Part shown: piece after piece, positions 4,115 through 55,849 of the stretch
How positions within the stretch are numbered: the stretch's first letter is position 1
Layout: the number at the start of each line of letters is the position of its first letter
NCBI GenBank assembly: GCA_023664665.1
Contig: JAMPEY010000007.1
Coordinates: 14,899 to 78,898, forward strand
Reading direction: 5' to 3'
Origin: Lachnoclostridium sp.
GTDB taxonomy: Bacteria; Bacillota; Clostridia; Lachnospirales; Lachnospiraceae
DNA: 64,000 bases
The notes under the pieces: generated by a model
Databases searched by the model: none
Seen by the model: the letters and a program-made list of their open reading frames with translations, nothing else
What the model was told of the DNA's origin: nothing
Made by a program: the position numbers and the translations under genes

Positions 4115-5029
4115 TTATGACGCTTCCGCTTTTAGAACCGCCTCAGCCATGCGGATAGCCCGGACATTCTCTTTAACATCATGCACCCGCACAAAACTAC
4201 AGCCCTTCATTACCCCGATCACGGAAGCTGCCAGAGTTCCTTCCAGACATTCTGCCGGCGGAAGATGTAATGTTCTGCCGATCACGGATTTCCGGCTGCA
4301 TCCCAATAAAACCGGAAAATCGAGGGCTTTCAGACTTTCCAGCGCATTCAGTATTTCCAGATTGTTCTCATAGGTTTTGCCAAAGCCAATACCGGGGTCC
4401 AGAATGATTTTTTCCCTTGCAATCCGCGCCCGCTCCGCAATCTTTACGGTATCGGCCAAATCTGCCAGCACATCCTGTATGACATTTCTATAGTCCGCCT
4501 GTTTTCTGTTGTGCATAAGACAGCAGGGCAGACCGCTTTCTGCAATCACCGACGCCATTTTTTCGTCATATTTTAATCCCCAGATATCATTAATCAGGTC
4601 AACTCCCCCACGGATTCCCGCGGATGCCACCCCGCTCTTGTAGGTATCCAAAGAGACAGGAATGTCAAAGCGTGCCCGAATGGCCTCAATCACAGGCAAA
4701 ACTCTGGAAATCTCCTCTTCTTCCGACACAAAATCCGCGCCCGGTCTGGTGGATTCTCCTCCCACATCCACTATATCCACGCCTTCCTCCAGCATGGTTT
4801 CCACATGATAAAGCGCCCGGTCTCTGTCATTCCATCTGCCCCCGTCCGAAAAGGAATCCGGTGTTACATTCAGAATGCCCATGATATAAGTATGCTCTTT
4901 TGTGTCAAACTCCCGATTGCCGATTTTCATGCTAACCCCCATTCCGCCTCCGGCGGCTTTCGTATCCGATTGGCAATATCCTGCATTTTTTATAATTTTA
5001 TTTTCAGGTTTTTCTTTCCTGCCTTCCAA
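4115..5029 (-). CDS. folP: Dihydropteroate synthase (true start probably the internal Met near 4943)
   Basis: GILNVTPDSFSDGG pterin-binding signature. Full DHPS TIM-barrel length. Confidence 0.9.
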   Translation of the reverse strand: MEGRKEKPENKIIKNAGYCQSDTKAAGGGMGVSMKIGNREFDTKEHTYIMGILNVTPDSFSDGGRWNDRDRALYHVETMLEEGVDIVDVGGESTRPGADFVSEEEEISRVLPVIEAIRARFDIPVSLDTYKSGVASAGIRGGVDLINDIWGLKYDEKMASVIAESGLPCCLMHNRKQADYRNVIQDVLADLADTVKIAERARIAREKIILDPGIGFGKTYENNLEILNALESLKALDFPVLLGCSRKSVIGRTLHLPPAECLEGTLAASVIGVMKGCSFVRVHDVKENVRAIRMAEAVLKAEAS

Positions 5030-5472
5030 TTACAGTTTTTCTCCTCGGTACAGGCAAAACAGGCCCGGCTGGCTTTGTCCGCCCGATACAATATTCCCTT
5101 AAGGTTCCGCTCACCCGCCGACTTTTCATCCCGATGTCCAAGAATCGCTTCCACAATTCTACGGCTTTCTTCCTCCGAAAAATCACAGTCTTTTAAAATA
5201 ACAGGTGCAATTTCTGCCCCTGCCATTTCATGGGGAGTTCCGTCCTCATATTGTATATGTTTTCCCAAATCATGTAAAAGCGCCGCGGCATAAATCCATT
5301 CTCTGTCCAGCTCCGGCTCTTCCTCCAGACGAAGGATTTCTCCGATTCTTGCCACATCCAAAAAATGCGCCATATCATGACGGCAGAAGCGTCTGTCCGC
5401 TTCTGCCTCCTGATTTTTTCTTAAATGATGCAAAAATAAGTCATGATTTAATATTTTATCTATTCTATCCAT
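4990..5472 (-). CDS. HD-domain phosphohydrolase embedded in the folate operon
   Basis: H..HD..K metal-binding motif (LLHDLGKH), ~160 aa. Lies between folE and folP on the same strand. Confidence 0.7.
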   Translation of the reverse strand: MDRIDKILNHDLFLHHLRKNQEAEADRRFCRHDMAHFLDVARIGEILRLEEEPELDREWIYAAALLHDLGKHIQYEDGTPHEMAGAEIAPVILKDCDFSEEESRRIVEAILGHRDEKSAGERNLKGILYRADKASRACFACTEEKNCNWKAGKKNLKIKL

Positions 5473-11550: not shown

Positions 11551-11982
11551 ATGTTAAATGTAGGAAAAATCGAAGAGGGATTTGTCTTGGACCATATCAA
11601 AGCAGGAAAAAGCCTTTCCCTTTATGAGCATCTCCAATTGGACAGACAGGACTGCACCGTGGCGATTATCAAAAACGCCCGCAGCAATAAAATGGAGAAA
11701 AAGGATATTTTAAAGGTGGAATGTGATATTGATACTCTGGATTTGGATGTACTTGCTTTTATCGACCACAACATTACCGTAAATGTCATCAAAAACGGCG
11801 AAATTGTGGAAAAAAAGGAATTGGTGCTCCCCAAACAGATTAAGAATGTCATCAAATGCCATAACCCCAGATGCATTACTTCCATCGAACAGGGTCTTCC
11901 CCATGTCTTTAACCTTGCAGACGAGGAAAGAGGAATCTACCGCTGCAAATATTGTGAGGAGAAGTATTCAGAAAAGGCATAG
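11551..11982 (+). CDS. pyrI: Aspartate carbamoyltransferase regulatory subunit
   Basis: C-terminal Zn domain CHNPRCITS...YRCKYCE. GGAGG RBS precedes the ATG at 11551. Confidence 0.9.
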   Translation: MLNVGKIEEGFVLDHIKAGKSLSLYEHLQLDRQDCTVAIIKNARSNKMEKKDILKVECDIDTLDLDVLAFIDHNITVNVIKNGEIVEKKELVLPKQIKNVIKCHNPRCITSIEQGLPHVFNLADEERGIYRCKYCEEKYSEKA

Positions 11983-12251
11983 CATTTTCCAGCACTTGAT
12001 ATAACAGGCAAAATACTGCTTCCATGGATGACCCATGGTATATGCACCGTCGGCATATGTGCCGTATGCGCTGCCGCCGGCATGCCACATAAGCAGCATT
12101 ACCAACAGTATGATCAACACGGATTTGATTCTGCCTCCCAGCTTCCATTCCAACTCTTCCAACAACATAAAAAGCCCCCCGCAATATTTGTCCATATTTA
12201 AACATTATGCGGGGGACTTTCTTTTTATGCCTGTGAATCAATACAAAGTTG

Positions 12252-12333
12252 GAAGAATCCGCTTGCGGATTCTTCTCGGAATGAAGATTTTCTTAGGTCA
12301 GGTATTTTCTGACCTTAGAAAATCTTCATTCCG
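12252..12333. repeat. Compound palindromic element (24-nt perfect hairpin GAAGAATCCGC-TT-GCGGATTCTTC plus 26-bp inverted repeat with CTTAGAAAATCTTCATTCCG arms), immediately 3' of secDF
   Basis: Directly read. A near-identical copy lies at 45873..45973, with related copies at 44015..44182 and 51755..51846. Confidence 0.7.
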
Positions 12334-12335
12334 TT

Positions 12336-14603
12336 TTATGCTTTTGCCTTCTTGGGCGGGAATTTCATCCGAAATACATACCACAGCGCCCCAGCCAGAC
12401 ATACGGAAGAATATGCGCCGCAGACAATACCTACCATTAAGGGAAGGGCAAAGTCACGGATGCTGGTTACACCGAAGACATACAGCGCCGCCACCATGAC
12501 AAAGGTGGTCAGGGAGGTAAAGATGCTTCTGGACAAGGTCTGTTGAATACTCTTGTTGACTACATCCTTCAAATCCTCTTTCCTGCTCATCACCGCCATA
12601 TTTTCACGGATACGGTCAAAGATAACGATGGTCGCATTGATGGAATAACCCACAATGGTCAACATGCAGGCGATAAAGGTATTGCCCACCGACACCCTTG
12701 CCGCCGCATAGAATGCAAGCACCACCAGTACATCATGGAGCAGGGCGATAATGCTGCCTGCGCCAAAACGAATGTCACTGAAGCGGACACGGATATAAAG
12801 TAACATACAGATAATCGCGATAACCACCGCAAGAATAGTATCCGACTTCATTTCCCCGCTGATGGTGGAGCTGATGGTTTCCGATGTAATCAATGCTTTC
12901 TCCACACCAAAGTTGTCAATCAGCATCTGTTCCATCTGTTCTCTTTGTTCCACATTTAACGCGTTGGTCTTAAAAATTGCCTCATTGGAATCCTGCACGG
13001 TCTGTACCTGTACCGCGCTGCCCGTAAGCTCCTCAATCAGAGGCACCACCTGTGCGGTAAGCTCCTCTAATGTCTTTGCCTCATTAAAATTCACCGTGGT
13101 AGCTGTACCGCCCTTAAATTCCAGACTATAGTTCAAAATATCGTTCCCCTTGGAAGCGTTGACTCCCATTACCACAAATCCCGCCACAATCACGGCAAGG
13201 GATGCGCCGAAGAAAATTGTCCTCTTGGACAGGAAATCCACGATTTTCTTTTCCTTCCTGCCTACGCCGTACCATTTCTCACTCTTTAAGCCCAGAGCAT
13301 AGAACGCATTTAAGATCCACCTTGTGACAACCAGAGCGGTAAACATGGACAATACAATACCTAACGCCAGAGTCTGGGCAAATCCCTTGATGGTTCCGGG
13401 TCCTAAGAAGAGTAACACCACAGCGGCGATAAGAGTAGTCACATTTCCGTCGATAATTGCGGACAGCGCTTTGTCGAATCCTATTTTTATCGCTTCCCGC
13501 ACAGTTCTTCCTGCCGCCAGTTCCTCACGGATACGGGCGAAAATAATCACATTGGCGTCCACCGCCATTCCGATGGAAAGAATGATGCCTGCCACACCGG
13601 AAAGGGTCAATGTCATATCAAAACCGTTCAACAAAAGCACGATTAATGCCACATACAGGCATAATGCCAGCACGGACGCAAAGCCCGGCAGCAGATACAC
13701 CGCAATCATGAACACCGCTACAATGGCAAAACCAATGACTCCTGCCTTTAAGCTGGTCTCAATGGCTTCCTCCCCAAGTTGTGCGCCCACCACCTTGGAA
13801 TGCAGTTCCTCAAGTTCCAGCTTGAGACCGCCGATACGGATGGTGGAAGCCAGATTCTCCGCAGCCTCAAAACTTTCCATAGGGGAAATCTGCGCGCTTC
13901 CGTCCGTGAAGACACCGTTTACACCAGGTACGCTCACAAAATTTCCGTCATAATAAATGGCAAGGGTCTCGCCCTTCTCATAAGCATTTCTGGTAGCCGT
14001 CGCAAATTTTTCCCTGCCTTCCTCGGTCATGGTCAAATCTACCGCATACACACTGTTTCCCAGCCTGTCCTGCGTGGAACCCGCACGGGCTTCCGCAACA
14101 TCCGTACCTACCAGAGCGATGGAGCCATCCTCAAGAAGGACATCGATGGATTTGTTGAGCACATAGGTATATCCTGTCGTTCCGTCCGCTCCCTGTACTA
14201 TCTGTGAGGAATAGTTTTTGCTGCCATCGGGACCTGTCTCCGAAATAAAGTACAGCGCGCCGGGTCTGCCCAATTCCTGCAAAATAGCATTGGCATTGCT
14301 GACGCCGGGAATTTCAATATTAATTCTGTTAGCGCCTTCCTGATACACAATTGCTTCTTTATTATAATTCTCCACACGCTTCTGGAGCTTTGCAATGGTA
14401 TCGCTCATATCCGTCTGGTCAGGAGTTTCTTCCCCCACCGCCTGATAGGTGATGCTGACTCCTCCCGCCAGATCAAGTCCCAGACTAATGTCTGATGCGC
14501 TTGCAGTGCCCTCCGCATCCGTACCGTAGATATCCACATAGGATACGCCTGCCAGAACCAGCAGCAGACACAGCAAAATAATAACCGCCTTGCTCTTTTT
14601 CAT
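12336..14603 (-). CDS. secDF: Protein translocase subunit SecDF (fused)
   Basis: 755 aa with 12 TM helices, periplasmic-type domains and SecD/SecF motifs. Confidence 0.9.
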   Translation of the reverse strand: MKKSKAVIILLCLLLVLAGVSYVDIYGTDAEGTASASDISLGLDLAGGVSITYQAVGEETPDQTDMSDTIAKLQKRVENYNKEAIVYQEGANRINIEIPGVSNANAILQELGRPGALYFISETGPDGSKNYSSQIVQGADGTTGYTYVLNKSIDVLLEDGSIALVGTDVAEARAGSTQDRLGNSVYAVDLTMTEEGREKFATATRNAYEKGETLAIYYDGNFVSVPGVNGVFTDGSAQISPMESFEAAENLASTIRIGGLKLELEELHSKVVGAQLGEEAIETSLKAGVIGFAIVAVFMIAVYLLPGFASVLALCLYVALIVLLLNGFDMTLTLSGVAGIILSIGMAVDANVIIFARIREELAAGRTVREAIKIGFDKALSAIIDGNVTTLIAAVVLLFLGPGTIKGFAQTLALGIVLSMFTALVVTRWILNAFYALGLKSEKWYGVGRKEKKIVDFLSKRTIFFGASLAVIVAGFVVMGVNASKGNDILNYSLEFKGGTATTVNFNEAKTLEELTAQVVPLIEELTGSAVQVQTVQDSNEAIFKTNALNVEQREQMEQMLIDNFGVEKALITSETISSTISGEMKSDTILAVVIAIICMLLYIRVRFSDIRFGAGSIIALLHDVLVVLAFYAAARVSVGNTFIACMLTIVGYSINATIVIFDRIRENMAVMSRKEDLKDVVNKSIQQTLSRSIFTSLTTFVMVAALYVFGVTSIRDFALPLMVGIVCGAYSSVCLAGALWYVFRMKFPPKKAKA

Positions 14604-22457: not shown

Positions 22458-23579
22458 TCAATGTTCAAACGCCGCAAAGTATTCCTGTGCCTTCTGCAGG
22501 GATAGATTCAGCTTTGCCTGCAGCCGCTCCAGAATGTCACTCTCCGAAAGCCCGCAATCCAGCCCTGTTTCTATAATTCCTTGCATAATACCTCTCGCAA
22601 GTCCTTGTTCTATTCCATCTTCCATGCCCCTCTCATACTCCTCAGTGCGTATGGCTCTTTCGTATGCCTCTTCGTCAAATTCATAGATGCTCATATGCCT
22701 TACCTCCGCCTTGTTCAACAAAAGGAAATCTTTCAGGATTCCTTCTTTAATGCATTCATCCACTGCACGGTCCACTGCTTCCTCCAAAGGCATAACGGCA
22801 GCGTATTCCCTTACCCTGTCCACATATTGCATATACTCCTTGAGGGTTGGGCACTTCTCCTTTAATTCCTCATTGTATCCCTCGTTGATATTGATGATCT
22901 GCACCATGAGCTCCAGCTGCGGTTCAGTCCCTTCCTTAGGGAAAATGGGACCCTTCGGGGAATCAGCCTTTTCCAAGGGACATCTTGTGTCCTTCGGGAA
23001 TGTATCCTTTCCCAGAGGACATTTTATGTCCTTCGGAAAGGCATCCGAGAGCCTCATGAGCTGCCTTTCCGGAAACGGACTTACTCCGTTGTAGAATACA
23101 ATAAAATGCGGCGCCGGGAGGGGGATTCTCCTGCTCCCATAGATATTTTCCCCTGCCGTAAGCTTTGCGTATTCCTCCGACACATACTGCAGGAAGCGGA
23201 ACGGCATGTTGAAGTTTATGGTGGATTGGCGCTCATACAGATGCAGCCGTAGCTCCACCAGAAATGCCAGATCGTTCTTGACCCCCATATAGACGGCATT
23301 CTCCAAGGTCACGATTTTAAGCTCCTCCGGGTCCCTGCAACCACTCCCACTGACCGCATTGTACAGCTCCAGCAAGTTCCTTTTGTCACCGAACAGCATC
23401 CGAAACACCGTGTCCCTGTACTGCCTCTTTGCCTGCGGGGGCTTCCCCTGTGGTTTTCTCCCCGGTCGGCTTTTCTCCGGCAGTTCTTCCGCCTGCCGCC
23501 TTTTCTCCTGTTGTTTCAAATTTCCTCCTTCCCATGGAAACCGAAAGGAAAAAACAGCCCTAGCGTTCACGGAATCCAT
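22458..23579 (-). CDS. Rpn/YhgA-like PD-(D/E)XK nuclease family protein (putative transposase, Transposase_31-like) with DUF4351-like tail
   Basis: D..F...F ... E.Q.S ... M.FR...Y ... LP...FIVFYNG pattern. Glu/Gly-rich helical C-terminus. K/R/P-rich 55-aa N-terminal extension. Confidence 0.5.
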   Translation of the reverse strand: MDSVNARAVFSFRFPWEGGNLKQQEKRRQAEELPEKSRPGRKPQGKPPQAKRQYRDTVFRMLFGDKRNLLELYNAVSGSGCRDPEELKIVTLENAVYMGVKNDLAFLVELRLHLYERQSTINFNMPFRFLQYVSEEYAKLTAGENIYGSRRIPLPAPHFIVFYNGVSPFPERQLMRLSDAFPKDIKCPLGKDTFPKDTRCPLEKADSPKGPIFPKEGTEPQLELMVQIININEGYNEELKEKCPTLKEYMQYVDRVREYAAVMPLEEAVDRAVDECIKEGILKDFLLLNKAEVRHMSIYEFDEEAYERAIRTEEYERGMEDGIEQGLARGIMQGIIETGLDCGLSESDILERLQAKLNLSLQKAQEYFAAFEH

Positions 23580-36540: not shown

Positions 36541-36824
36541 GCGGCATTTTAATCAGCGGGAACTTTGGGACGCACAGCGTCACAAATTCCGAGATTGAAA
36601 ATTTTTAATTTTCAATCTTTTCCTCCATGTTACGATTGCTTTTCTAAGTACGACTAACTTTGGTATTTCTCAAACTTCCTTTTATTTCAAAACCCTACGA
36701 ATGCCCCACGCATTCCCCCTCTCCTATTTTTTCGTCCGTTCCATACAGCTTTCTTACTCTGATAAAATAAGTATAGCATAGTACACCGCTTCCGCGCAAT
36801 TTATATTTAGTCAGCCGGTAAATT

Positions 36825-38378
36825 CTATTGTTGGCTGTCTTCATATTTGAAATAATCAAAATCCGCCGCTTTCCTGCTGCCGCAGCCGCCATTGTTGGCA
36901 TAAATGCCCACCAGGGTTCCGGTATGACGCTTGGGGTCGTCAGGGACGCCCTCATCGCACAGGTAAATACAGTTCTTTAACGCCCCTATAGGTATCCACT
37001 CTTCGCCGTCATAACTGTAATAAAAAATTCTGTCCAGCTTATCCACTTCCACTTTTAAATGCACCGGGGCTTCTTTCACATCAGCAATCTCCGCCACCAG
37101 CTCCTCTCCATGGTTCCTGTTGATCACAAGCTGTATTTTCCTGCCTCCCTCATAGCACAGCGCGCATCTTGCATAAGTGGCTGTGCTGTAATAACAGGTC
37201 AGCCCCGCCTGCTCCCCGTCCTTGTCAGGGTAAAATTCCACCTTGGTCCAAGCCTTGTAGGAAAGCTCCTGCTCCCTGCGAAGCAGGGTATTCTTGGCAC
37301 GAATCTCGTTTAACTGACCGTCTCTGGTCCAAATGCGGAAATAGCCGGGACGCTCCGTCAAAGACCACGAGCCGTTATCGGGATTCCGTACAAATTCCCA
37401 TTCTAAATTCAGCTTACTGTCATCAAAATCATCCGACAGATTCCGCTCGTAAACGCATTCCGGCAAATCCGGCGCCGTCTGGGTCAGGCTGGGGCCCTTT
37501 CCCTCATTTACGGTAAACCAGCCGTCCTCGGTCCACCGAACCGGGTCTAAGGCAGACTCCCTGCCCACAGTGGTATATTTTCCCTGATTGGGTCTTCCGC
37601 AGAGATAATAACACCACCACTGTCCGTTCTGATCCTGTACCAGCTTCCCATGCCCCGTCCTCTGAATGGGCGCATCGGGGTCCGTCTGGCGCATCACCGG
37701 ATTGTAGGGAGAATTTTCATAAACACCATAAAGCTCCCTGCTCCTGCCCACATTGATTCTATGACCGTAACCGGTGCCGCCCTCCGCAAGAATCGCGTAA
37801 TAATAACCGTCCTTCTTCATGAGATGGGGACCCTCCGGACATCTTTCGCCCGTGCCTTCCCATGCCGTCCTTACGGGTCCCGCCAAAGAAAGCCCGTCCG
37901 CGCTTAAGGGAACCGTCCGTGCCGCCTTGGCAATCACCATGTATTTGCTTCCGTCATCATCCACAAACAGCGAAGGGTCAATATCGTCCACTTCCAGACA
38001 TACGGGTTTGCTGTAAGGTCCTTCCGGCTTGTCGGACACCATCACAAGCTGTCTGCGCATCACATTATTATCCCGCTTGCCGTCTGCATTGAGGCGCAAT
38101 GTCGCGTAAATATAAAACTTTCCGTCCACATATTCCAAATCCGGCGCCCAGATACCGTGGGAGTCTTTTGTTTCACTCAAATCCAGCCATTCCGAATTCG
38201 TAACGGCATGCCCTATAATATGCCAATGCACCATATCCCTGGAATGGGAAATGGGGATTGCCGGAAAATACTGAAAGCTGGAATTGACCATGTAATAATC
38301 ATCCCCCACCCTGATAACGGACGGATCCGGGAAAAATCCCCTCTGCACCGGATTGTGGTAAACTCTCTGCTCTGCCAT
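36825..38378 (-). CDS. Glycoside hydrolase family 43 beta-xylosidase/alpha-L-arabinofuranosidase with C-terminal beta-sandwich domain
   Basis: N-terminal FPDPSVIRVGDDYYMV and internal WAPD / ..EGPH.. GH43 catalytic motifs. Confidence 0.85.
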   Translation of the reverse strand: MAEQRVYHNPVQRGFFPDPSVIRVGDDYYMVNSSFQYFPAIPISHSRDMVHWHIIGHAVTNSEWLDLSETKDSHGIWAPDLEYVDGKFYIYATLRLNADGKRDNNVMRRQLVMVSDKPEGPYSKPVCLEVDDIDPSLFVDDDGSKYMVIAKAARTVPLSADGLSLAGPVRTAWEGTGERCPEGPHLMKKDGYYYAILAEGGTGYGHRINVGRSRELYGVYENSPYNPVMRQTDPDAPIQRTGHGKLVQDQNGQWWCYYLCGRPNQGKYTTVGRESALDPVRWTEDGWFTVNEGKGPSLTQTAPDLPECVYERNLSDDFDDSKLNLEWEFVRNPDNGSWSLTERPGYFRIWTRDGQLNEIRAKNTLLRREQELSYKAWTKVEFYPDKDGEQAGLTCYYSTATYARCALCYEGGRKIQLVINRNHGEELVAEIADVKEAPVHLKVEVDKLDRIFYYSYDGEEWIPIGALKNCIYLCDEGVPDDPKRHTGTLVGIYANNGGCGSRKAADFDYFKYEDSQQ

Positions 38379-38409
38379 AAAGCTTCTCCTTTTCTTCTCC
38401 TGCCCTTCT

Positions 38410-38721
38410 CTAGTGACCCCAAACCTGAAAAGTAGCCGACACTATTTTTTCCACATCTTCCACGGATATATCTGCCGCTTCCGCCATTTCCTGAATACTG
38501 GCGCCGCCCTTTGTCTGCATGCGGACCACCGTATCCACTGCCTTCTTTGTGTACTCCTCCAAACCAAACTCTTCTCTGAGCGATGACATAGTTTCTTTTT
38601 CCTCCCTTTTATATTGCGTATTAGGCATTTGCGAAACTCTGGTTTTTGTAGAGTGTCGTTGTACAGATTGCACATTCCACCGCAGACGCGCTCTCGCTCC
38701 GTGAAAAACGCAGTGGTACAT
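38410..38721 (-). CDS. Small hypothetical protein; the real start is probably an internal Met (MPNTQYK or MSSLREEF)
   Basis: The ORF N-terminus overlaps a large palindromic terminator-like structure. The C-terminal 60 aa are acidic/helical. Confidence 0.25.
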   Translation of the reverse strand: MYHCVFHGARARLRWNVQSVQRHSTKTRVSQMPNTQYKREEKETMSSLREEFGLEEYTKKAVDTVVRMQTKGGASIQEMAEAADISVEDVEKIVSATFQVWGH

Positions 38722-38762
38722 AAGATGCTAAAGTACAGCATCTAAGTACCAGCGTTTTTCAA
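38707..38762. terminator. Bidirectional terminator-like nested palindrome (GAAAAACGC..GTAC-n-GTAC..GCGTTTTTC) inside a larger ~140-bp inverted repeat (38655..38800)
   Basis: Directly read: outer arms TTGTACAGATTGCACATTCC / GGAACATGCAATCTGCACAA; inner stem flanked by A5/T5 runs. Confidence 0.45.
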
Positions 38763-38837
38763 GGGTCTGCTTGTGGAACATGCAATCTGCACAACTCGGT
38801 TTATGAAAGTTTGAGTTTCGCAATTACCTAATATTGC

Positions 38838-40493
38838 TTATTCGTCAAAATGAACCAATACATAACCGTCCTGAAGCGAGATAGAGCCTTCCGCGGGCCA
38901 TCCCGGCAGGGAATCCCCGATTTTCCGCGCCTGCTCTAAAATTTCCTTGTCAGAAACCGTGGAAAACTCATGCCCATGCATCTTAAGAAATGCAATCATC
39001 TCTCGATTCGTCCCGTCAAAGGCGTCAAAAGCCCATTGGATAAAAGGATACTGCGCCTCTCCGATAAAACAATAACCCTGAGGCTGGAAATACTTTTCCT
39101 TCAAATGTTCATCCACCAAATCCGTAATCCTCGCAATCATGCGGTACTGCCATGAACCGTACCCCACATAATAATCGGAAACAAATTCATAGGGTACGCT
39201 GTCATGCCCGGTAAATACCACAGGCAAATCGGTTCCGTAAGCCTTCTCCACCTCATATGCCACTTGGCTTAAGACCTCTCTGGTATATTCATATTTTTGA
39301 TAATCCTTGTAAAAATTTCTGTTCATCATGGCTGCCTGATTCCAAAGCAGCACAATGCCCAAAAAAGAAACCGCATACCTTAAGTAAGGAACGCTCTTTT
39401 TCTTCTGTTCAAACGCCCTGTAAATCATCAGCACGCCCGCTGCCGCAAAAAAGGGCAGATACTGGCAGGCGCGGTATAAAGTTATCTCAGCCGTGGCTAC
39501 CGTCAGAAGAAACGGGGTTATCAGCATGCCCGCAAACAAAACCGGATACCACAAATTTTTCTTTCGCACTGCCATGACTATGGCATAAACTCCCATACAG
39601 ATACAGGCAATCTCATAGACAGTAACCGGCAGATACACCAAAGCGTTGACATGGTACACCACCCAGAACCTCTTCACCAGCATAAAGAAATCAAGCAGTC
39701 CTTCTTTTCCCCGAAATAAGGTAAACATCTCTGTCAGACTTCTCTGGGGCAGAATACCTACCGCATCCTGCAATCCAAACAGCACAGTCATAAGCGGGAT
39801 GGTAATGCTGCGCAATACCACGCATCCTGCGCTCAATAGGGCGCCTGTTCCCAGATTTTTTGCCAGATGGGAAAAGGTCAGTTTATCCTTTCCCCCTGCT
39901 CCCCGAAGAAATACTATGAGCAAAATCCCCAAAATATACAAGATAATCAACGATTCGTAGCATCCTGAGGCAATCCATACAAACGCCATGCTGCCCAGAT
40001 ACGCCGACAGCTTCCCGCGTCCTGTCCTCTCCATGCCTTCCATAAAAGAAAGAAGCGCCAGCCCCGTCAAAACATAGCCTAAATCGACACCGTCATGATA
40101 ATAATAGATATATACCTCACTGAGAATGGGATTGGACAGAAAGACACAGGCAAACAGGGTATAGCCCCAAATTCCTGTCTCCTGCCCGAAAATTCTTCTC
40201 AGCAGAACCGCAAACAGCGTGACTCCCAGCATCAGAAGAAGCACTCCCACAAGTTCCAACATAAAGGGGGTAAAATCCGACAGATGAAACAGTTTATTCA
40301 CCAGAAAAACCGTCCATCTCCCCATTACAACTTCCAAGCCTTCTTCTAAATACAAGCTTACCGCCGTATCGTCAATCCCGATGCTATAGTGGGTAACGGC
40401 AAATCCATAACTGCATGCCGCGGTCAGACACAGCATTACCATATATGTCTTCTGACGCCAGAACCAACCGATTTCCTGTAATAAACGCTTCAC
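38838..40493 (-). CDS. Polytopic membrane protein, putative GtrC-like glucosyltransferase (Glucos_trans_II-like), paralog 1
   Basis: ~10 TM helices, N-terminus MKRLLQEI.W....Y..ML.L....YGFA.T.YSIGIDDTAV, soluble C-terminal ~130 aa domain. Confidence 0.4.
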   Translation of the reverse strand: MKRLLQEIGWFWRQKTYMVMLCLTAACSYGFAVTHYSIGIDDTAVSLYLEEGLEVVMGRWTVFLVNKLFHLSDFTPFMLELVGVLLLMLGVTLFAVLLRRIFGQETGIWGYTLFACVFLSNPILSEVYIYYYHDGVDLGYVLTGLALLSFMEGMERTGRGKLSAYLGSMAFVWIASGCYESLIILYILGILLIVFLRGAGGKDKLTFSHLAKNLGTGALLSAGCVVLRSITIPLMTVLFGLQDAVGILPQRSLTEMFTLFRGKEGLLDFFMLVKRFWVVYHVNALVYLPVTVYEIACICMGVYAIVMAVRKKNLWYPVLFAGMLITPFLLTVATAEITLYRACQYLPFFAAAGVLMIYRAFEQKKKSVPYLRYAVSFLGIVLLWNQAAMMNRNFYKDYQKYEYTREVLSQVAYEVEKAYGTDLPVVFTGHDSVPYEFVSDYYVGYGSWQYRMIARITDLVDEHLKEKYFQPQGYCFIGEAQYPFIQWAFDAFDGTNREMIAFLKMHGHEFSTVSDKEILEQARKIGDSLPGWPAEGSISLQDGYVLVHFDE

Positions 40494-40522
40494 TCCGATA
40501 AATACCTCTCTGTTTTAAAACG

Positions 40523-42172
40523 CTACAACTTTACCAAAACATAACCGTTCTGCAGGGAAATAGAGCCTTCCTGCGGCCAGCGGGGCATAGTCTCCCCGAT
40601 TTCTCTGGCTCTCTTTATTTCCTCTTTATCCGCTATGGTTGTGAAGGAATAGCCGTGCATTTCCAGAAACCGGATCAGCTCACGGTTTGTACCGTCAAAG
40701 GCGTCAAATCCCCAGCGTATCATGGGCAGATTTTTCTCCCCGATAAAGCAATATCCCTGAGGTTCAAAATATTTTTCCTTCAAATGCTCATCCACCAAAT
40801 CCGTAATTCCCGCAATCATACGATATTGCAGGGAATCATAACCCACATAATAATCCTTCATAAATTCATAAGGCAGCTCATACTCTCCCACCAGCACAAG
40901 GGGTACTTCCCTGCCATACTGCTTTTCCACATCATAAGCAATTCCCGTAAGCGTCTCTTTTGTCAGTTCATACTCCCTATAATCCATATAGAAATCCCGA
41001 TTCATCATAAACGCCTGATTGTATATCAGAATTACTCCCCCGAAAACCGCTGCATATCTCCAATATCTGCTATATTTCCACTGTCCGAATGCCCGATAAA
41101 GCAACAGCATCCCCAGTGCGGCAAAAAAAGGTAAATATTGGCAGGAACGATAAAAGGTTACATGTGCCTCTATCATTGTCAGCAAAAAAGGAGTAATCAA
41201 CATTCCCACAAACAGAACCGGATACCATATATTTTTCTTCCGCAGGGCCGCTGCAACCGCATAAATCCCCACACAGACACAGGCAAGCTCGTATACCGTA
41301 ATCGGCAGATAAACCAATGCATTAACATGATATACCAGCCAAAATCTCTTTATCAGCATAAAAAATTCCGATAAACCTTCTCTTCCCCGAAACAATTCCG
41401 ACATCTCGAAGAGGCTCCTTCTTGCCGACACACTCTCCATATTCTGCAATTGAAAAATCATTGTCATTGCTTCAAGGATAACATTGCGCAAAAGGATGCT
41501 GCCCACGCTCAGCAGTGCTCCGATTCCAAGATGCTTCGCCACATGGAGAAAAGTCAGTTTTTCCTTTCCCGTCATTCCCCTGAGAAACAAAATGACTAAA
41601 ATTCCCAAAATATACAAAATCAGGAAAGATTCGTAGCATCCTACCGCAGCCCATATAAACAGCATACTTCCCAGATAACTCCACAATTTTTCGCGCCCCT
41701 TTGCCTGTTCCATCCCATCCATAAAGAACATCAGGGCAAGCGCAGTCAAAATATAGCCCAAATCCACACCTGTATGGTAATAATATACATATATTTTACT
41801 TATCATGGGATTGGACAAAAACATGCAGGCAAAAAGAATATATCCCCAAATTCCTACCTTCTCGCCAAAAATCCTTTTCAATAGGACGGCAAATAAAGTA
41901 ACACCCAGCATCAAAAGAAGAACCCCTGCCAACTCCATCATAAAGGGCGTAAAATCCGACATGTGAAACAGCTTGTTTATCAAAAATACGGTCCATCTTC
42001 CCCTAACTACGGTCAATCCATCCTCCAGATACAATCCTACGGCAGTATCATCAATGCCGATGCTGTAACCGGTGATTGCAAATCCATATCCGCACAGGGC
42101 GGTAAGGCACAACATCGCCACATATATTTTTTGATGTAAAAACCAAGTGATTTCCCGTGATAGGCGTTTCAT
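40523..42172 (-). CDS. Polytopic membrane protein, putative GtrC-like glucosyltransferase, paralog 2 (tandem duplicate)
   Basis: Collinear with and ~60-65% identical to 38838..40493 over the full length. Confidence 0.4.
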   Translation of the reverse strand: MKRLSREITWFLHQKIYVAMLCLTALCGYGFAITGYSIGIDDTAVGLYLEDGLTVVRGRWTVFLINKLFHMSDFTPFMMELAGVLLLMLGVTLFAVLLKRIFGEKVGIWGYILFACMFLSNPMISKIYVYYYHTGVDLGYILTALALMFFMDGMEQAKGREKLWSYLGSMLFIWAAVGCYESFLILYILGILVILFLRGMTGKEKLTFLHVAKHLGIGALLSVGSILLRNVILEAMTMIFQLQNMESVSARRSLFEMSELFRGREGLSEFFMLIKRFWLVYHVNALVYLPITVYELACVCVGIYAVAAALRKKNIWYPVLFVGMLITPFLLTMIEAHVTFYRSCQYLPFFAALGMLLLYRAFGQWKYSRYWRYAAVFGGVILIYNQAFMMNRDFYMDYREYELTKETLTGIAYDVEKQYGREVPLVLVGEYELPYEFMKDYYVGYDSLQYRMIAGITDLVDEHLKEKYFEPQGYCFIGEKNLPMIRWGFDAFDGTNRELIRFLEMHGYSFTTIADKEEIKRAREIGETMPRWPQEGSISLQNGYVLVKL

Positions 42173-42354
42173 GCAAATGATATTCCTCTCAAATATATTT
42201 AAAAGCTTTTGCGCATGGTTTCATTGTACCACATTTCCCTCATTTCAACAATCACAAAAAAACAACCGGGAACCTTCGAGATTTCCCGGCTGTTTTTCTT
42301 ATTCCTGTCTCTTTCTGTCAATCCTGTGCTTTTCAACTTACATGATTCGCAGTC

Positions 42355-44171
<1,817 letters not shown>

Positions 44172-44182
<11 letters not shown>

Positions 44183-44459
44183 ATATTGCCAAGATGTCAC
44201 TCTGTCTTACAATAATATATTCTTCCTCTTCCAGCTTCACTTCCGTGCCTGCGTACTTAGAGAAAATAACTTTATCTCCTGCCTTGACTTCCATCTTGAT
44301 TTCCTTGCCGTCAACCACACCGCCGGGGCCTACTGCGATTACTTCCGCCTGCTGGGGTTTCTCTTTACTCTGTCCGGGCAAAACAATACCGGATTTGGTT
44401 GTGTCTTCCGCCACCATCTGTTTCAATACCACTCTGTCGCCTAAAGGTACTAATTTCAT
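44172..44459 (-). CDS. groS: Co-chaperonin GroES
   Basis: [13 protein letters not shown] ... 95 aa. Confidence 0.96.
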
Positions 44460-44494
44460 AAATCATGCCTCCTTAATCATCACTTTGCTGTTTG

Positions 44495-44521
44495 TTAGCA
44501 CTCTTTGCATTCGAGTGCTAA
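44495..44521. promoter_or_regulatory. CIRCE operator (HrcA binding site): TTAGCACTC-N9-GAGTGCTAA, perfect
   Basis: Exact consensus 36 nt upstream of the groES ATG. Putative promoter TTGCCA-17-TAATAT at 44534..44562 on the minus strand. Confidence 0.9.
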
Positions 44522-44751
44522 TCACTAAAACATATATTAGTTTTATATGTAAAACTTGGCAAACGCATTCACGCTCCATTAAATTTTATTTTCTTCTGTT
44601 TTCTTTTGTTTACTCTCTTTTTCTCTTATTTTCTTACTTCAATGTCAAAAAGCAGATTTTATATTTCCTTTATAATTTAGGACTTACGCCAGTAATATTT
44701 TGTACACAGCAGGACCACTGTAGGTGCCTGCAAAATCGGTTGTCCTCCCAT

Positions 44752-44782
44752 AAAAAAACGGCAGCCTGTGAACAGGCTGCCG
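44752..44782 (-). terminator. Rho-independent terminator of the 44791..45840 gene
   Basis: CGGCAGCCTG-ttca-CAGGCTGCCG followed by TTTTTTTA on the minus strand, 9 nt after the stop. Confidence 0.65.
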
Positions 44783-45872: not shown

Positions 45873-45973
45873 GAAGAATCCGCTTGCGGATTCTTCGCGG
45901 AATGACTTAGATTTTCCATGCGCTCCAGCGCTATGGGTTGGATACCTTCCAACCTTAGAAAATCTTCATTCCG
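45873..45973. repeat. Compound palindromic element, near-identical to 12252..12333, abutting the stop codon of 45974..46642
   Basis: GAAGAATCCGCTTGCGGATTCTTC plus a long inverted repeat ending CCTTAGAAAATCTTCATTCCG. Confidence 0.7.
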
Positions 45974-46642
45974 TTAACACTTAATTTCCAGATAGCCCAG
46001 CAGCTTGCTTGTGTCATACTCCTCCAGCACGCCCAGATTGGAATCATAGAACTTGCCGTCATAGTGTACCAGATAATGGCAGAAACGCCCCATCTTTTCC
46101 ATTAAAATCGCGCACTTGGGAAGCACGGTGTCCCGTCCCTCGGTGTACACGATGATATCCGTATGGTCAATTCCGTAATAGTTTAATGCGGAAATCACGC
46201 GCCCCATAGTTGCCTGCCACTCCCTGCAGTCCATAACGCTGATCACTTCGGCAATGGTCACGCCTGCCAGCATAGCCACACAGGACTGTCCGCAAAGTCC
46301 GTCCTCGGGCTGAATGATGACATCAATACCATCAATCTTGCGAATAGGATTCTCAAAACTGTAAGGGCTGTTCTGATCCATGCGGATCAGGGAACCGTTT
46401 ACATGCAGCAGAATCTTGTGGGGAACACCCAGCTCTACATTCACTTTGGATTCGTCCGCTATATGAATCTCATAATTTCCCTTCTCCTTGGGATGCAGTT
46501 CGCAGTCGATAATCTTATTGTCAAGCACTACATCGCCGATGATGACTTCTCTCTGCTTACACACCTCCCATACATTGAAAGGTATCTGGATTGTGTAACC
46601 CTGATCTTTCTTTTCTACCGTGGATTCAAAAAAATATCTCAT
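45974..46642 (-). CDS. Hypothetical protein: DUF1905-like N-terminal beta domain plus C-terminal papain/C39-like cysteine-peptidase-like domain
   Basis: DGLCGQSCVAMLAGV (Gln...Cys as in C39 QxxxxxCGxAC) and a downstream HYLVHYDG His. The N-terminal ~90 aa resemble DUF1905. Confidence 0.3.
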   Translation of the reverse strand: MRYFFESTVEKKDQGYTIQIPFNVWEVCKQREVIIGDVVLDNKIIDCELHPKEKGNYEIHIADESKVNVELGVPHKILLHVNGSLIRMDQNSPYSFENPIRKIDGIDVIIQPEDGLCGQSCVAMLAGVTIAEVISVMDCREWQATMGRVISALNYYGIDHTDIIVYTEGRDTVLPKCAILMEKMGRFCHYLVHYDGKFYDSNLGVLEEYDTSKLLGYLEIKC

Positions 46643-51709: not shown

Positions 51710-51754
51710 TACATTCTTTTTACGCTAATCCTCCATGCCGCCTCCGGCGGCTCA

Positions 51755-51846
51755 TATCTGAGTGTGAAGCTTTAGAATTTCTTATGTCTGCGTACTAAAG
51801 AGGGGCGTTTACACACCCTCTTGCAGACTTAGAAATTCTCTTCACA
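51755..51846. repeat. Palindromic element between convergent PBP1A and 51847..52125 (arms GTGTGAAG..TTAGAATTTCT / AGAAATTCTCTTCACAC with inner AAGAGGG..CCCTCTT hairpin)
   Basis: Directly read. Shares the TTAGAAWTTC core with the other elements. Confidence 0.55.
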
Positions 51847-52125
51847 CTACAACCCTTTGATTTCCTTGATTTTCGCCTGTAGCTTGGCGATGCCGTTTTC
51901 GGCGTTGGCAATGGTGCGACACTGCTTTTGGAAATCCGCATCCGGCATATCCTTGAACTGTTCATAATAGAGCTTTCCTATCTCCGTATAATTCTTTTTG
52001 ATGACATCCTCACAGGTGGAAATGCGGCTCTTTAAATTTACAATCTCCGCCACATCCTTTGCCTTATCCACTGCTTCCTGCCCCTTCTCAGTAATCACAT
52101 CCCCAATCTTTTCCAAAAAATCCAT
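51847..52125 (-). CDS. Small hypothetical helical protein (92 aa)
   Basis: ORF with good coding periodicity and charged helical composition. No family recognised. Confidence 0.3.
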   Translation of the reverse strand: MDFLEKIGDVITEKGQEAVDKAKDVAEIVNLKSRISTCEDVIKKNYTEIGKLYYEQFKDMPDADFQKQCRTIANAENGIAKLQAKIKEIKGL

Positions 52126-54655: not shown

Positions 54656-55849
54656 TTATTTTTGATTATCAGGTAATGGTGAAAAATCCCGTATGACAGA
54701 AAGCGCAGGCAGGGCATTGCCCTCATAGTCGAACAGTGCCTGATTTGCCCATTCATTCCCTCCGGGTCCCCCATCCTCTATATAAGCAAGGGACTCCTCG
54801 TTTGCCCATCCGCATCCGGGGACGGGAATCCACGCCGGTTCCCAATAATAAAAGCCTCTTCCCTTTCCGTTCGGAATCTGTGCAATGCGCTCCATCACCT
54901 TCTGCATGAAAGCCCCCTGTCCCTCCCTTGTCATGGGAAATTCAAGATTTTCCACCAAGTGAGGCTTGGTCGCCATGCCCTTTCGCTCATTGGCGGCGAG
55001 CTTCTCATAACCGGCATAATCCTCCATCGTATAACCCATGGAAACCTCCACCAACACGATTTCCTTGTCATAACGATTTGCCAAATCATTCATATTAAAG
55101 GTCAGATCATCAATGGTGCCGTGCCAGAAAGGATAATAGGACAGCCCGATCAAGTCAAATGCTTCCCCACGCTGCATATACTCGTCAAACCACTGGCGGC
55201 ATCTTGCATTGTTGCCGCCGCAGTCCAAATGCAGCATCACGGGGGCGTCCGGCACAATTTCCCTCACAGCCCTGATTCCCGCATTCAGGAACTTTGCAAT
55301 ATTATCATAACAGCCCTCCGCCCCAAGGGGCCACAAAAGCCCATTAGTCACTTCATTGCCCACCTGAACCATATCCGGCAGTAAATCCCTTTCTTTTAAG
55401 TTTATTAGGGTTTCTTTGGTATAGTCATAAACTGCATGTTCCAACTCTTCCACACTATAATTCTTCCATGCCTTGGGCGGAAACTGCTTCCCCGGATCCG
55501 CCCAGAAATCGCTATATTGGAAATCCAAAAGATAACTATATCCCAATGCCCTGCCTTCTTTAGCCAATTCGACCAATTTGTCAAAATCATTCGTTCCACC
55601 CCCATATGATTTTCTATGGGGGGTCCCATATGATTTTCCATGAGGGTCCCCATATGACTTTCCATGGGGGTTCCCCGCCGGACTGTAGGGGTCGTTCCAC
55701 AGCCTGAGGCGCAAAGAATCCGCCCCATAATTTTTCAGGATGGAGAGGGCGGATTCCTCTTTTCCGCCATCATAATACCTTGCGCCACATTCCCTTTCCT
55801 CGATAAGCGATGAAACATCCATCCCCTTGATAAACTTACTCAAAGCCAT
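54656..55849 (-). CDS. ganB: GH53 arabinogalactan endo-beta-1,4-galactanase with an inserted 8-aa x3 tandem repeat
   Basis: LRLRLW, VQVGNEV (acid/base) and VLVEVSMGY (nucleophile) motifs. Confidence 0.82.
   Translation of the reverse strand: MALSKFIKGMDVSSLIEERECGARYYDGGKEESALSILKNYGADSLRLRLWNDPYSPAGNPHGKSYGDPHGKSYGTPHRKSYGGGTNDFDKLVELAKEGRALGYSYLLDFQYSDFWADPGKQFPPKAWKNYSVEELEHAVYDYTKETLINLKERDLLPDMVQVGNEVTNGLLWPLGAEGCYDNIAKFLNAGIRAVREIVPDAPVMLHLDCGGNNARCRQWFDEYMQRGEAFDLIGLSYYPFWHGTIDDLTFNMNDLANRYDKEIVLVEVSMGYTMEDYAGYEKLAANERKGMATKPHLVENLEFPMTREGQGAFMQKVMERIAQIPNGKGRGFYYWEPAWIPVPGCGWANEESLAYIEDGGPGGNEWANQALFDYEGNALPALSVIRDFSPLPDNQK

Follow-up and report, generated by a model that had tools for sequence, protein, structure and literature searches.

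A modular palindromic repeat family located at the ends of open reading frames in Lachnospiraceae

Analysis of 64,000 nt of a Lachnoclostridium sp. genome (contig JAMPEY010000007.1, positions 14,899 to 78,898; hereafter the window) identified four copies of a compound palindromic element, each reading in the sense of the minus-strand gene upstream of it. The element belongs to a dispersed and modular repeat family that is sense-oriented, locked to the ends of open reading frames (ORFs), polymorphic for insertion and kept Watson-Crick complementary in its stems; it is not a terminator. The family is of a broadly known kind, the interspersed palindromic repeats of bacterial 3' untranslated regions (UTRs), and itself appears to be undescribed in the libraries searched. 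Our preferred reading, to which we give a probability of roughly 55%, is that of a lineage-specific, non-autonomous family of modular palindromic insertions that resembles REP (repetitive extragenic palindromic) sequences and BIMEs (bacterial interspersed mosaic elements) in behavior, is locked to ORF ends, spreads as DNA and forms a putative RNA hairpin in the 3' UTR.

The element is built on a long stem-loop with CTAAG motifs (SL1) and, in most copies, a second hairpin GAAGAATCCGCAAGCGGATTCTTC (SL2). Two covariance models, R1 constructed from 36 aligned copies outside the window (alignment A1) and R2, a broader model of 69 copies, retrieved the identical four loci, all on the minus strand, and R2 gave none besides. 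Two weak matches of these models were rejected, as 38693-38772 falls in a different, larger palindrome and 5383-5457 is unconvincing. Exact copies of the 24-nt hairpin GAAGAATCCGCTTGCGGATTCTTC are located at 12252-12275 and 45873-45896; zero occurrences are expected by chance, and shuffled sequences gave zero. The core CTTAGAAWWTC is found six times in the window, exclusively on the plus strand, against an expectation of 0.19. The four loci fold with z-scores of -4.6 to -11.7 relative to shuffles on either strand, and the hairpin stability ranges from -40 to -64 kcal/mol. The individual features are as follows.

12252-12344, minus strand: copy 1, covariance-model match (R1, 101.6 bits)
12277..12333, minus strand: copy 1 SL1, in gene sense CGGAATGAAGATTTTCTAAGGTCAG-loop-CTGACCTAAGAAAATCTTCATTCCG; CTAAG in both arms gives a conserved A.A mismatch
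12252..12275, minus strand: copy 1 SL2, a perfect 10-bp hairpin, in gene sense GAAGAATCCG-CAAG-CGGATTCTTC
12336..12338, minus strand: TAA stop codon of secDF (755 aa); SL1 ends at 12333, leaving a 2-nt gap
45873-45984, minus strand: copy 2, covariance-model match (R1, 94.7 bits)
45898..45973, minus strand: copy 2 SL1, with outer and middle helices as in copy 1, a 3-nt bulge and inner hairpins at ~45936-45954 and ~45916-45936
45873..45896, minus strand: copy 2 SL2, identical to that of copy 1 and followed by ATTTTGTTGG; the sole terminator-like copy
45974..45976, minus strand: TAA stop codon of a 222-aa gene, adjoining the SL1 end (45973) with zero gap
44103..44181, minus strand: copy 3 SL1 in the groES-groEL spacer, outer stem AACAACTAAG/CTAAGTTGTT (R1, 45.4 bits; R2, 59.6 bits)
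44080..44101, minus strand: copy 3 SL2 variant GGAGAATCGCAAGCGATTCTCC
44015..44059, minus strand: partial second unit in the groES-groEL spacer, with a duplicate 3' arm GAAATTCTAAGTTGTTC and a second SL2 variant GGGAGAATTGTAAGAGATTCTCTC
51761..51848, minus strand: copy 4 SL1 of the GTGTGA class, outer stem AGTGTGAAG/CTTCACACT, with a palindrome nested in the loop (R1, 31.5 bits; R2, 38.8 bits)
51719..51751, minus strand: copy 4 distal module, a GC hairpin GCCGCCGGAGGCGGC (51737-51751) followed by ATGGAGGATTAGCG

The original prediction of two near-identical compound elements that share the 24-nt hairpin and begin 0-3 nt from minus-strand stop codons is borne out by copies 1 and 2. The 26-bp inverted repeat that it described is present in copy 1, whose 25-nt arms (12277-12301 and 12309-12333) are 96% complementary. 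The outer arms of copy 2 (CGGAATGA/TCATTCCG and AGATTTTC/GAAAATCT) match those of copy 1 but are interrupted by the 3-nt bulge and the two inner hairpins, of which CCATAGCGCTGGAGCGCATGG (~45916-45936) is an optional nested module found in other genomes too. The identity of secDF is supported by SecD_SecF Pfam domains on a 99% identical protein. The DUF1905/peptidase-like label given to the 222-aa gene finds only a sub-threshold DUF1905 match in Pfam. The diverged relative noted at 51755 is indeed a family copy abutting the stop codon of a 92-aa gene but lacks SL2; the TAG stop (51847-51849) overlaps its outer stem (51840-51848). By direct reading, the distal module of this copy matches the SL4 hairpin and GGAAGTGTGAA-like tail of full-length elements elsewhere.

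The groES-groEL spacer had been described as a triple array and instead contains one full unit (44080-44191) and the partial second unit (44015-44059). The identity of groES is confirmed by Pfam domains on an identical or 99% identical protein. Its stop codon (44172-44174) falls within the stem arm at 44165-44180, and the outer stem takes in this stop together with the final two codons of the gene. A perfect CIRCE (controlling inverted repeat of chaperone expression) operator (TTAGCACTC-N9-GAGTGCTAA) is located at 44495-44521 upstream of groES. As this is its usual place, the operon is under conventional heat-shock control, to which the elements in the spacer have been added.

The minimal unit of the family, SL1 plus SL2, has ~85-120 nt, and units range from 85 to 200 nt. 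SL1 is arranged as CGGAATGAAGATTTTCTAAGG, inner hairpin and CCTAAGAAAATCTAAGTCATTCCG, with a stem of 20-25 bp in which CTAAG on both arms creates a fixed A.A mismatch and the 3' arm usually carries a 3-nt bulge that is part of a further CTAAG; the CTAAG repeats are regularly spaced within the element. The inner hairpin presents a conserved AAAGUAC (AAAGTAC) loop on a 4-6-bp stem, which varies among otherwise identical copies and always covaries (TCAG/CTGA, TTGG/CCAA, CAGC/GCTG). SL2, 1-2 nt 3' of SL1, has a conserved base GRAGAA/UUCUYC, and the orientation of its CAAG loop is kept in ~93% of copies. A second class has the outer stem GTGTGAGA/TCTCACAC in place of CGGAATGA/TCATTCCG. Long copies add a variable SL3, a linker ATTGATTGTTTGTGCC, the GC hairpin SL4 and a tail GGCATGACTGGAAGTGTGAA; this tail (GGAAGTGTGAA) repeats an optional prefix AAGTGTGAA that precedes SL1 in some copies. 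Small extra palindromes are nested at three places: within the loop of SL1, next to the inner hairpin and within the linker. Tandem arrays occur at five loci outside the window (L042, L053, L063, L070 and L169) and in the groES-groEL spacer of the window. Copies 1 and 2 thus consist of SL1 and SL2, the groES copy of SL1 and SL2 with a duplicated 3' arm and a second SL2, and the copy at the 92-aa gene of SL1, SL4 and tail.

A solo GC hairpin GCCGCCGGAGGCGG followed by AATGGGGGTTAGC is located on the minus strand at 4925-4960, directly 5' of the ATG of an apparent folP-like gene, so named on its N-terminal translation alone. The hairpin is shared with the SL4 module of long elements and with 51737-51751, and may be an element remnant or an independent small palindromic unit. 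A cluster of short repeated hairpins (GGACATCTTGTGTCCTTCGGG / GGACATTTTATGTCCTTCGG) at 22965-23070 gives weak covariance-model matches on both strands and lies outside the family.

The family is unusual in its placement. With genes predicted by a crude longest-first ORF caller, element and upstream gene share a strand in 62 of 62 cases, which answers the question of strand bias raised by the original prediction. On the other side, the next gene shares the strand of the element in 48 cases, often less than 100 nt away, and is convergent in 10 (n = 58); no copy occupies a divergent promoter region. A search of 70 copies for sense ORFs of at least 80 aa revealed that such an ORF ends at the element in 58, with the stop codon positioned as follows.

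Stop upstream of SL1 with a gap of 0-3 nt (mode 1 nt): 30 copies
Stop upstream of SL1 with a gap of 4-17 nt: 7 copies, all with a AGTGTGAA prefix that the stop adjoins
Stop overlapping the first SL1 bases: 4 copies
Stop within the 5' arm (TGA of GTGTGA or AATGAAG, or TAA of CTAAG): 13 copies
Stop deeper within the element: 4 copies

At the extremes, the stop lies 17 nt upstream of the stem or more than 45 nt within the element. About a third of the ORFs ending at an element draw their stop codon and 2-26 codons from it. Those inspected among the 12 copies without a long ORF ending there are later array units or stand behind other modules. At zero spacing the prefix yields the in-frame tandem stop TAA GTG TGA, and many ORFs end in GAA/AAA GTG TGA, consistent with a harmless loss of the first stop. 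The genes with an element at the 3' end include secDF, groES, ackA and proB. Most copies have T[AG]A(A) at the left flank, and the tail ends in TGAA. The locking to ORF ends persists in front of convergent genes, with gaps of -1 to 2 nt; thus, the sparing of a downstream ribosome-binding site cannot account for it. Random insertion followed by purifying selection was also rejected, as it would predict both orientations and scattered distances. Compared with the original prediction, the element is longer and modular, often contains the stop codon and is insertion-polymorphic between close relatives.

At four loci (L043, L090, L062 and L007), ORFs of 231-808 aa extend 16-60 nt into the element and stop at CTAAG TAA. 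The annotated C-termini of these proteins would be element-encoded, for example ..KCERNEDFLR.. or ..SVNGMKIF. A mini-ORF MKIF in the 5' arm was considered and dropped, the GTGTGA class having no ATG.

Comparison of three orthologous sites, namely the secDF end (relatives found through SecDF homologues), the end of the 222-aa gene and the groES-groEL spacer, identified different states in close relatives. At secDF, the window reads ..GCATAA|AACGGAATG..(element)..CTTCC|AACTTTGTATTG. In a 99% identical relative (L196) only AACGGAATGAAGATTTTC|TTCCAACTTTG is left, owing to the loss of 66 nt between two short repeats, GATTTTC and GGATTC, and a 93% identical relative (L197) has an empty site, ..GCGTAA|ACTTGTGCAATTCG. 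Two 81% relatives are likewise empty, and a terminator follows directly. The end of the 222-aa gene is empty in L193 (..AAGTGCTAA|GAGAATG..ATG), filled in the window (TAA|CGGAATGAAGATTTTCTAAGG.. with the canonical SL2) and filled in Lachnoclostridium sp. NALB_7823_23 by an element with another inner hairpin and another SL2 (TAA|GTGTGAAAAGATTTTCTAAG..). The latter two share 95% identity in the flanks, whereas each of the three helices is different on both arms; they have the junction segments and one nested palindrome in common without any change. Helices swapped between identical junctions indicate either that modules were replaced through recombination with other copies or that insertion recurred at one point. 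The right junction at this site is too diverged to be read for a target duplication. The groES-groEL spacer has 16-60 nt in most of 78 related metagenomic loci and carries elements of differing subclasses in the window, L193, L114/L115, L119, L129 and L169, each beginning at the stop codon. These empty, filled, swapped and partly deleted states at three sites are recent insertions. The prefix AAGTGTGAA might conceivably represent a target-site duplication or an att core, a hypothesis to which one empty site only (AAGTGCTAA in L193) shows similarity.

To define the spread of the family, a genome collection was scanned with 18 nt of the SL2 hairpin as the seed, and at least 112 tiles were matched. 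Among the matches listed, ~60 tiles carry the full compound element, all from Lachnospiraceae metagenome-assembled genomes (MAGs) that are mostly of mouse-gut origin, going by their names; the remaining listed tiles are chance hairpins in unrelated phyla. The carriers include Bacillota bacterium NALB_7961_10, with at least 15 tiles, and Lachnoclostridium sp. NALB_7823_23, with at least 11 tiles and ~94-95% nucleotide identity to the window, as well as Acetatifactor muris, several uncultured Acetatifactor, Clostridium sp. NALB_7961_30 and one Blautia MAG. Within the element-bearing tiles, R1 further identified at least 14 copies without the seed sequence. Several copies per 100 kb in the window and tiles suggest, by extrapolation rather than by counting, a copy number of ~100-300 per genome. 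In contrast, 594-627 kb surrounding groES of other Lachnospiraceae has just 5-7 copies, so the family has expanded in a narrow clade and is sporadic elsewhere. This clade is that of Acetatifactor and Lachnospiraceae of the Lachnoclostridium sp. NALB type.

With dozens of copies beside unrelated genes in several genomes, the proposal of a dispersed autonomous repeat family is upheld and a duplicated gene fragment is ruled out. Phage, plasmid and viral collections gave no element match, and a phage or plasmid origin was therefore dropped. A search of the element-bearing tiles for a longer parent version with the same ends likewise gave none. The family also proved to be uncatalogued, as had been supposed: the whole window has no match at the gathering score in Rfam 15 and chance-level matches only in permissive E-value scans, and the searchable literature contains no match to the SL2 sequence string and nothing on this family under Lachnospiraceae REP, MITE (miniature inverted-repeat transposable element) or stop-codon topics. 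Small palindromic repeats are well studied in Proteobacteria; the libraries searched hold nothing comparable for gut Clostridia.

Structure is better conserved than sequence. All relatives fold into one two-hairpin design, and whole helices differ between subclasses. In the alignment of 69 copies, 97.3% of stem cells are standard pairs (34-54% in slid controls), compensatory changes on both sides are present in 29 of 31 pairs, and the covariation score is 0.484, compared with 0.13 for shuffled alignments and 0.03-0.09 for slid partners. The alignment was fitted to the model and the copies are related, so these covariation counts overstate the number of independent events; the gap to the slid controls is still large. 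Non-Watson-Crick cells are few (16 G-U, 31 A-C and 26 others, against 2000 Watson-Crick pairs), and no enrichment of sense-strand G-U wobbles was found in the 69 copies. Selection acting on one RNA strand only would predict more G-U; the observed pairs point to upkeep of the palindrome in DNA or to recent copying. The SL2 loop varies from 4 to 8 nt with the stem preserved, which argues for a folded single strand rather than a duplex operator.

Under the preferred reading, the DNA would be mobilized in trans by an enzyme, probably one that reads folded single-stranded hairpins, as in the REP/RAYT (REP-associated tyrosine transposase) and IS200/IS605 systems. Three features are reminiscent of these systems: a fixed mismatch and bulge, no terminal inverted repeats, and a T[AG]A(A) flank mirrored by the tail TGAA. 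Entry would occur at or right after the stop codon. The tail TGAA would rebuild such a site, and re-creation of the target could account for the tandem arrays. Being positioned within transcription units, the element is presumably co-transcribed. Its stable hairpins in the 3' UTR or between cistrons might act as barriers to 3' exonucleases, as processing signals for endonuclease or RNase III, or as both, and could set segmental mRNA stability, for instance of groES relative to groEL. A role of the hairpins in RNA stability or processing is predicted and probable, and the stabilizer part of the original prediction is plausible.

Several observations weigh against this reading. No transposase or partner protein was found by tblastn with an approximate IS608 TnpA query in ~0.5 Mb of element-rich tiles, a weak test whose sole match (L160) was an unrelated human-gut contig. 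Terminal inverted repeats, as expected of a MITE, are absent, the 5' end being CGGAATGA or GTGTGA and the 3' end ..GGATTCTTC or ..GGAAGTGTGAA; SL1 is an internal inverted repeat, and the ends of long copies are direct repeats. The T[AG]A(A) flank has too little sequence to account for insertion at true stop codons but not at other intergenic TAA/TGA. A target-site duplication is ambiguous, as the one clean empty/filled pair, L197 and the window at secDF, can be read with an AA(C) overlap of 2-3 nt or with none. In 54 of 55 tiles judged by tile GC skew, the G-rich strand is the sense strand; this would fit a hairpin-reading enzyme, but the skew cannot separate the confounded orientations of gene and replication. 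One orthologous pair of copies is identical at 96 of 96 nt, compared with 94.8% in the flanks; such conservation beyond that of the flanks suggests constraint or gene conversion and agrees poorly with neutral selfish DNA. Finally, the outer stem can be complementary to gene-specific coding bases (AACAACTAA in groES of the window, L114 and L193; GTATGAAGAG in L129), which simple cut-and-paste does not predict. Such bases hint at inverted copying of flanking DNA by replication template switching or at a native CTAAG-like stop context. Template switching has been documented to create and repair perfect stems (bioRxiv 10.1101/2021.04.15.439925).

Other explanations were weighed. The element might be a cis-acting structured RNA motif selected at each locus, its spread as DNA being incidental. 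A protein or the terminating ribosome would then read the CUAAG x CUAAG A.A loop, the AAAGUAC loop and SL2, and a position 0-2 nt after the stop would be functionally required, for instance for termination, recycling, blocking of re-initiation or occlusion of RNase or Rho entry. Conserved loops and internal loops on covarying helices, one design with differing helix sequences in distant lineages, the ortholog more conserved than its flanks and the complete sense orientation and stop locking, convergent contexts included, would all follow. The pairs tell otherwise, with no G-U enrichment on the sense strand and A-C (31) outnumbering G-U (16). Moreover, the 99% identical strain has lost most of its secDF copy, close relatives have none, the housekeeping genes of most relatives manage without the element, and the stop is not at a constant distance from the stem, lying up to 17 nt upstream or more than 45 nt within the element. 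We consider this explanation rather unlikely. The in-place making and reshaping of palindromes by replication template switching and ectopic gene conversion, in which a central hairpin nucleates inverted duplication into "onion" layers with no dedicated transposition, is more doubtful still. It would explain the coding bases and stop codon held in outer stems (groES AACAACTAA in the window and L114, GTATGAAGAG in L129), the nearly pure Watson-Crick stems, the whole helices swapped between genomes with 95% identical flanks and the slippage-type deletion between GATTTTC and GGATTC, and it has the documented precedent cited above. It leaves unexplained the near-identical 90-120-nt copies beside dozens of unrelated genes, the conserved asymmetries (A.A mismatch, 3-nt bulge, ~93% CAAG loop orientation) and the restriction of new copies to ORF ends.

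The original prediction had also assigned the element a terminator role. Stable hairpins directly behind genes, the T-rich tail of the 45873 copy, which was the only copy called in a terminator scan, and the convergent gene faced by the secDF copy agree with intrinsic or compound terminators at operon ends. However, the family has no U-tract after SL1 or SL2, the tail after SL2 being CGGCC.. or CGAAT.., and is mostly intra-operonic, with a same-strand gene next in 48 of 58 cases and one copy between groES and groEL; the elements are therefore not terminators. Behind the secDF copy stands a canonical bidirectional terminator of its own (12171-12220), and the scan called nothing at 11900-12500. 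At 51500-52000 it called the short inner hairpin 51803-51818 of copy 4 and an unrelated site, and not SL1 itself. The terminator explanation is thus scarcely probable at all. Nearly as improbable are double-stranded DNA sites for a dimeric regulator, nucleoid protein or topoisomerase, for which the perfect 11+11 palindrome of SL2 and the evenly spaced CTAAG repeats would speak; E. coli BIMEs, which bind IHF (integration host factor) and gyrase, offer a precedent. Half-site sequence and spacing vary with complementarity kept (SL2 loops of 4-8 nt, swapped helices), as is typical of a folded single strand and not of a duplex operator, and a site for a regulator would not explain the strict sense orientation at ORF ends.

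An unusual and improbable extension is that the element homes to translation stop codons and constitutes a new ORF-end-specific class, through targeting at the DNA level or ribosome coupling at the RNA level. In the former case the recognition motif (C)TAAG / T[AG]AA would be the stop itself, and a hairpin-reading enzyme would insert the element in sense precisely where ORFs end, sometimes donating the stop codon and C-terminal residues. Alternatively, the CUAAG x CUAAG hairpin with its A.A mismatch would work with the terminating ribosome. The outer stems might possibly grow by inverted copying of the last codons of the gene.

Other repeats and rearrangements are present nearby. A different palindromic element of ~215 nt at 38620-38835 forms a near-perfect hairpin (-107 to -112 kcal/mol) with terminal inverted repeats ATTAGGCATTTGCGAAACTC, starts ~5 nt past the stop codon (38838-38840) of a minus-strand 551-aa gene and has a 96.7% identical copy in NALB_7823_23 (L079 151-359). 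Its center CATAAGATGCTAAAGTACAGCATCTAAG resembles the inner hairpin of the ORF-end family in the opposite orientation. A third repeat type, a ~130-nt unit with the hairpin ATTCTGCGCCGGCAGAAT, is found three times in NALB_7823_23 (L021 3466-3791) and as a single short copy at the corresponding site of the window (~1095), with surrounding genes 93-95% identical. An 8.1-kb block of the window (36621-44758) comprising two tandem ~550-aa paralogues, groES and groEL is not at the matching place in NALB_7823_23, in which the sequence beside the 319-aa gene joins straight to the equivalent of window positions 36621-36513 (L194 4937-5045); this difference could reflect a rearrangement, an insertion or a MAG mis-join. 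The two adjacent minus-strand paralogous genes (39057-42008) have 72-82% nucleotide identity at an offset of 1676-1679 nt. At 55601-55672 there are three head-to-tail copies of a 24-nt unit CCCATATGATTTTCTATGGGGGGT, each able to form a small hairpin (CCCATA..TATGGG).

The ORF-end family reaches the 3' ends of core genes such as secDF, groES, ackA and proB, sometimes provides the stop codon and lengthens the protein, and places 100-200 nt of very stable structure between genes that are presumably co-transcribed. It bears on gene calling, operon and terminator prediction, assembly breaks in MAGs and strain typing in mouse-gut Lachnospiraceae. No known mobilization mechanism explains the near-absolute sense locking to ORF ends, and the family is a concrete system in which to seek one. 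The locking suggests that insertion is targeted in an unusual way or that the element has a function tied to the termination of translation.

Comparison with known systems places the family among, and apart from, several classes. Like the REP/BIME sequences of Enterobacteria and Pseudomonas, it is a strain-variable set of high-copy palindromes in untranslated and presumably transcribed DNA with mosaic hairpin modules and conserved linkers; REP/BIME sequences are also proposed mRNA stabilizers. REPs are defined as 20-40-bp palindromes with a GTAG (or CGTC) tag at one end and sit downstream of genes, between same-direction or convergent ORFs; their survey does not mention Firmicutes, the host clade here (PMC3733652). 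The placement of the element agrees, being on the extragenic side of same-strand genes with the next gene in the same direction or convergent. It differs in its 85-200-nt units and consensus 5' ends (CGGAATGA or (A)GTGTGA) that have neither a GTAG nor a CGTC tag, GTAG arising only where a TAG stop precedes GTGTGA (window 51846 and L169), in its strict sense orientation and 5' edge locked to the stop, neither of which is a REP property, and in that no RAYT was found in the weak tblastn of ~0.5 Mb. The original REP/BIME- or MITE-like assignment survives as REP/BIME-like behavior, but not as a REP or MITE in the strict sense.

The element also shares with the IS200/IS605-derived PATEs (palindrome-associated transposable elements) and kindred single-stranded DNA transposons recognized by their hairpins the lack of terminal inverted repeats, imperfect hairpins with a fixed mismatch and bulge, a short left-flank motif echoed at the 3' end, one orientation along the G-rich strand and tandem arrays. 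Its supposed target T[AG]A(A), however, is shorter and less specific than the known 4-5-nt targets, and no TnpA was found in the sample by the same weak tblastn. BOX of Streptococcus pneumoniae, EFAR of Enterococcus and bcr1 of the Bacillus cereus group are small non-coding modular repeats whose RNA folds into hairpins, frequently as part of a co-transcribed 3' UTR; some have no known mobilizing function, and some have been reported near stop codons. Our element is likewise small, modular and non-coding, but has no sequence similarity to them, and its link to ORF ends is near-absolute, with about a third of the ORFs ending inside. It resembles integron attC sites as an imperfect palindrome right after or overlapping the upstream stop, with structure kept over sequence, fixed unpaired bases and a single orientation. 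Unlike attC, it has no GTTRRRY/RYYYAAC cores at its ends, and the copies are dispersed behind core housekeeping genes and do not form cassette arrays beside an integrase. The closest parallel for its consequences comes from the intergenic stem-loops of the Ruminiclostridium cellulolyticum cip-cel operon, which shield processed ends, direct endonuclease cleavage and set transcript stability (PMC10311766). Both are stable stem-loops between the cistrons of clostridial operons. The cip-cel hairpins are locus-specific, whereas the family described here is dispersed and insertion-polymorphic; by analogy, processing and stabilization of the cip-cel type are the most likely consequence of its insertion at the RNA level.

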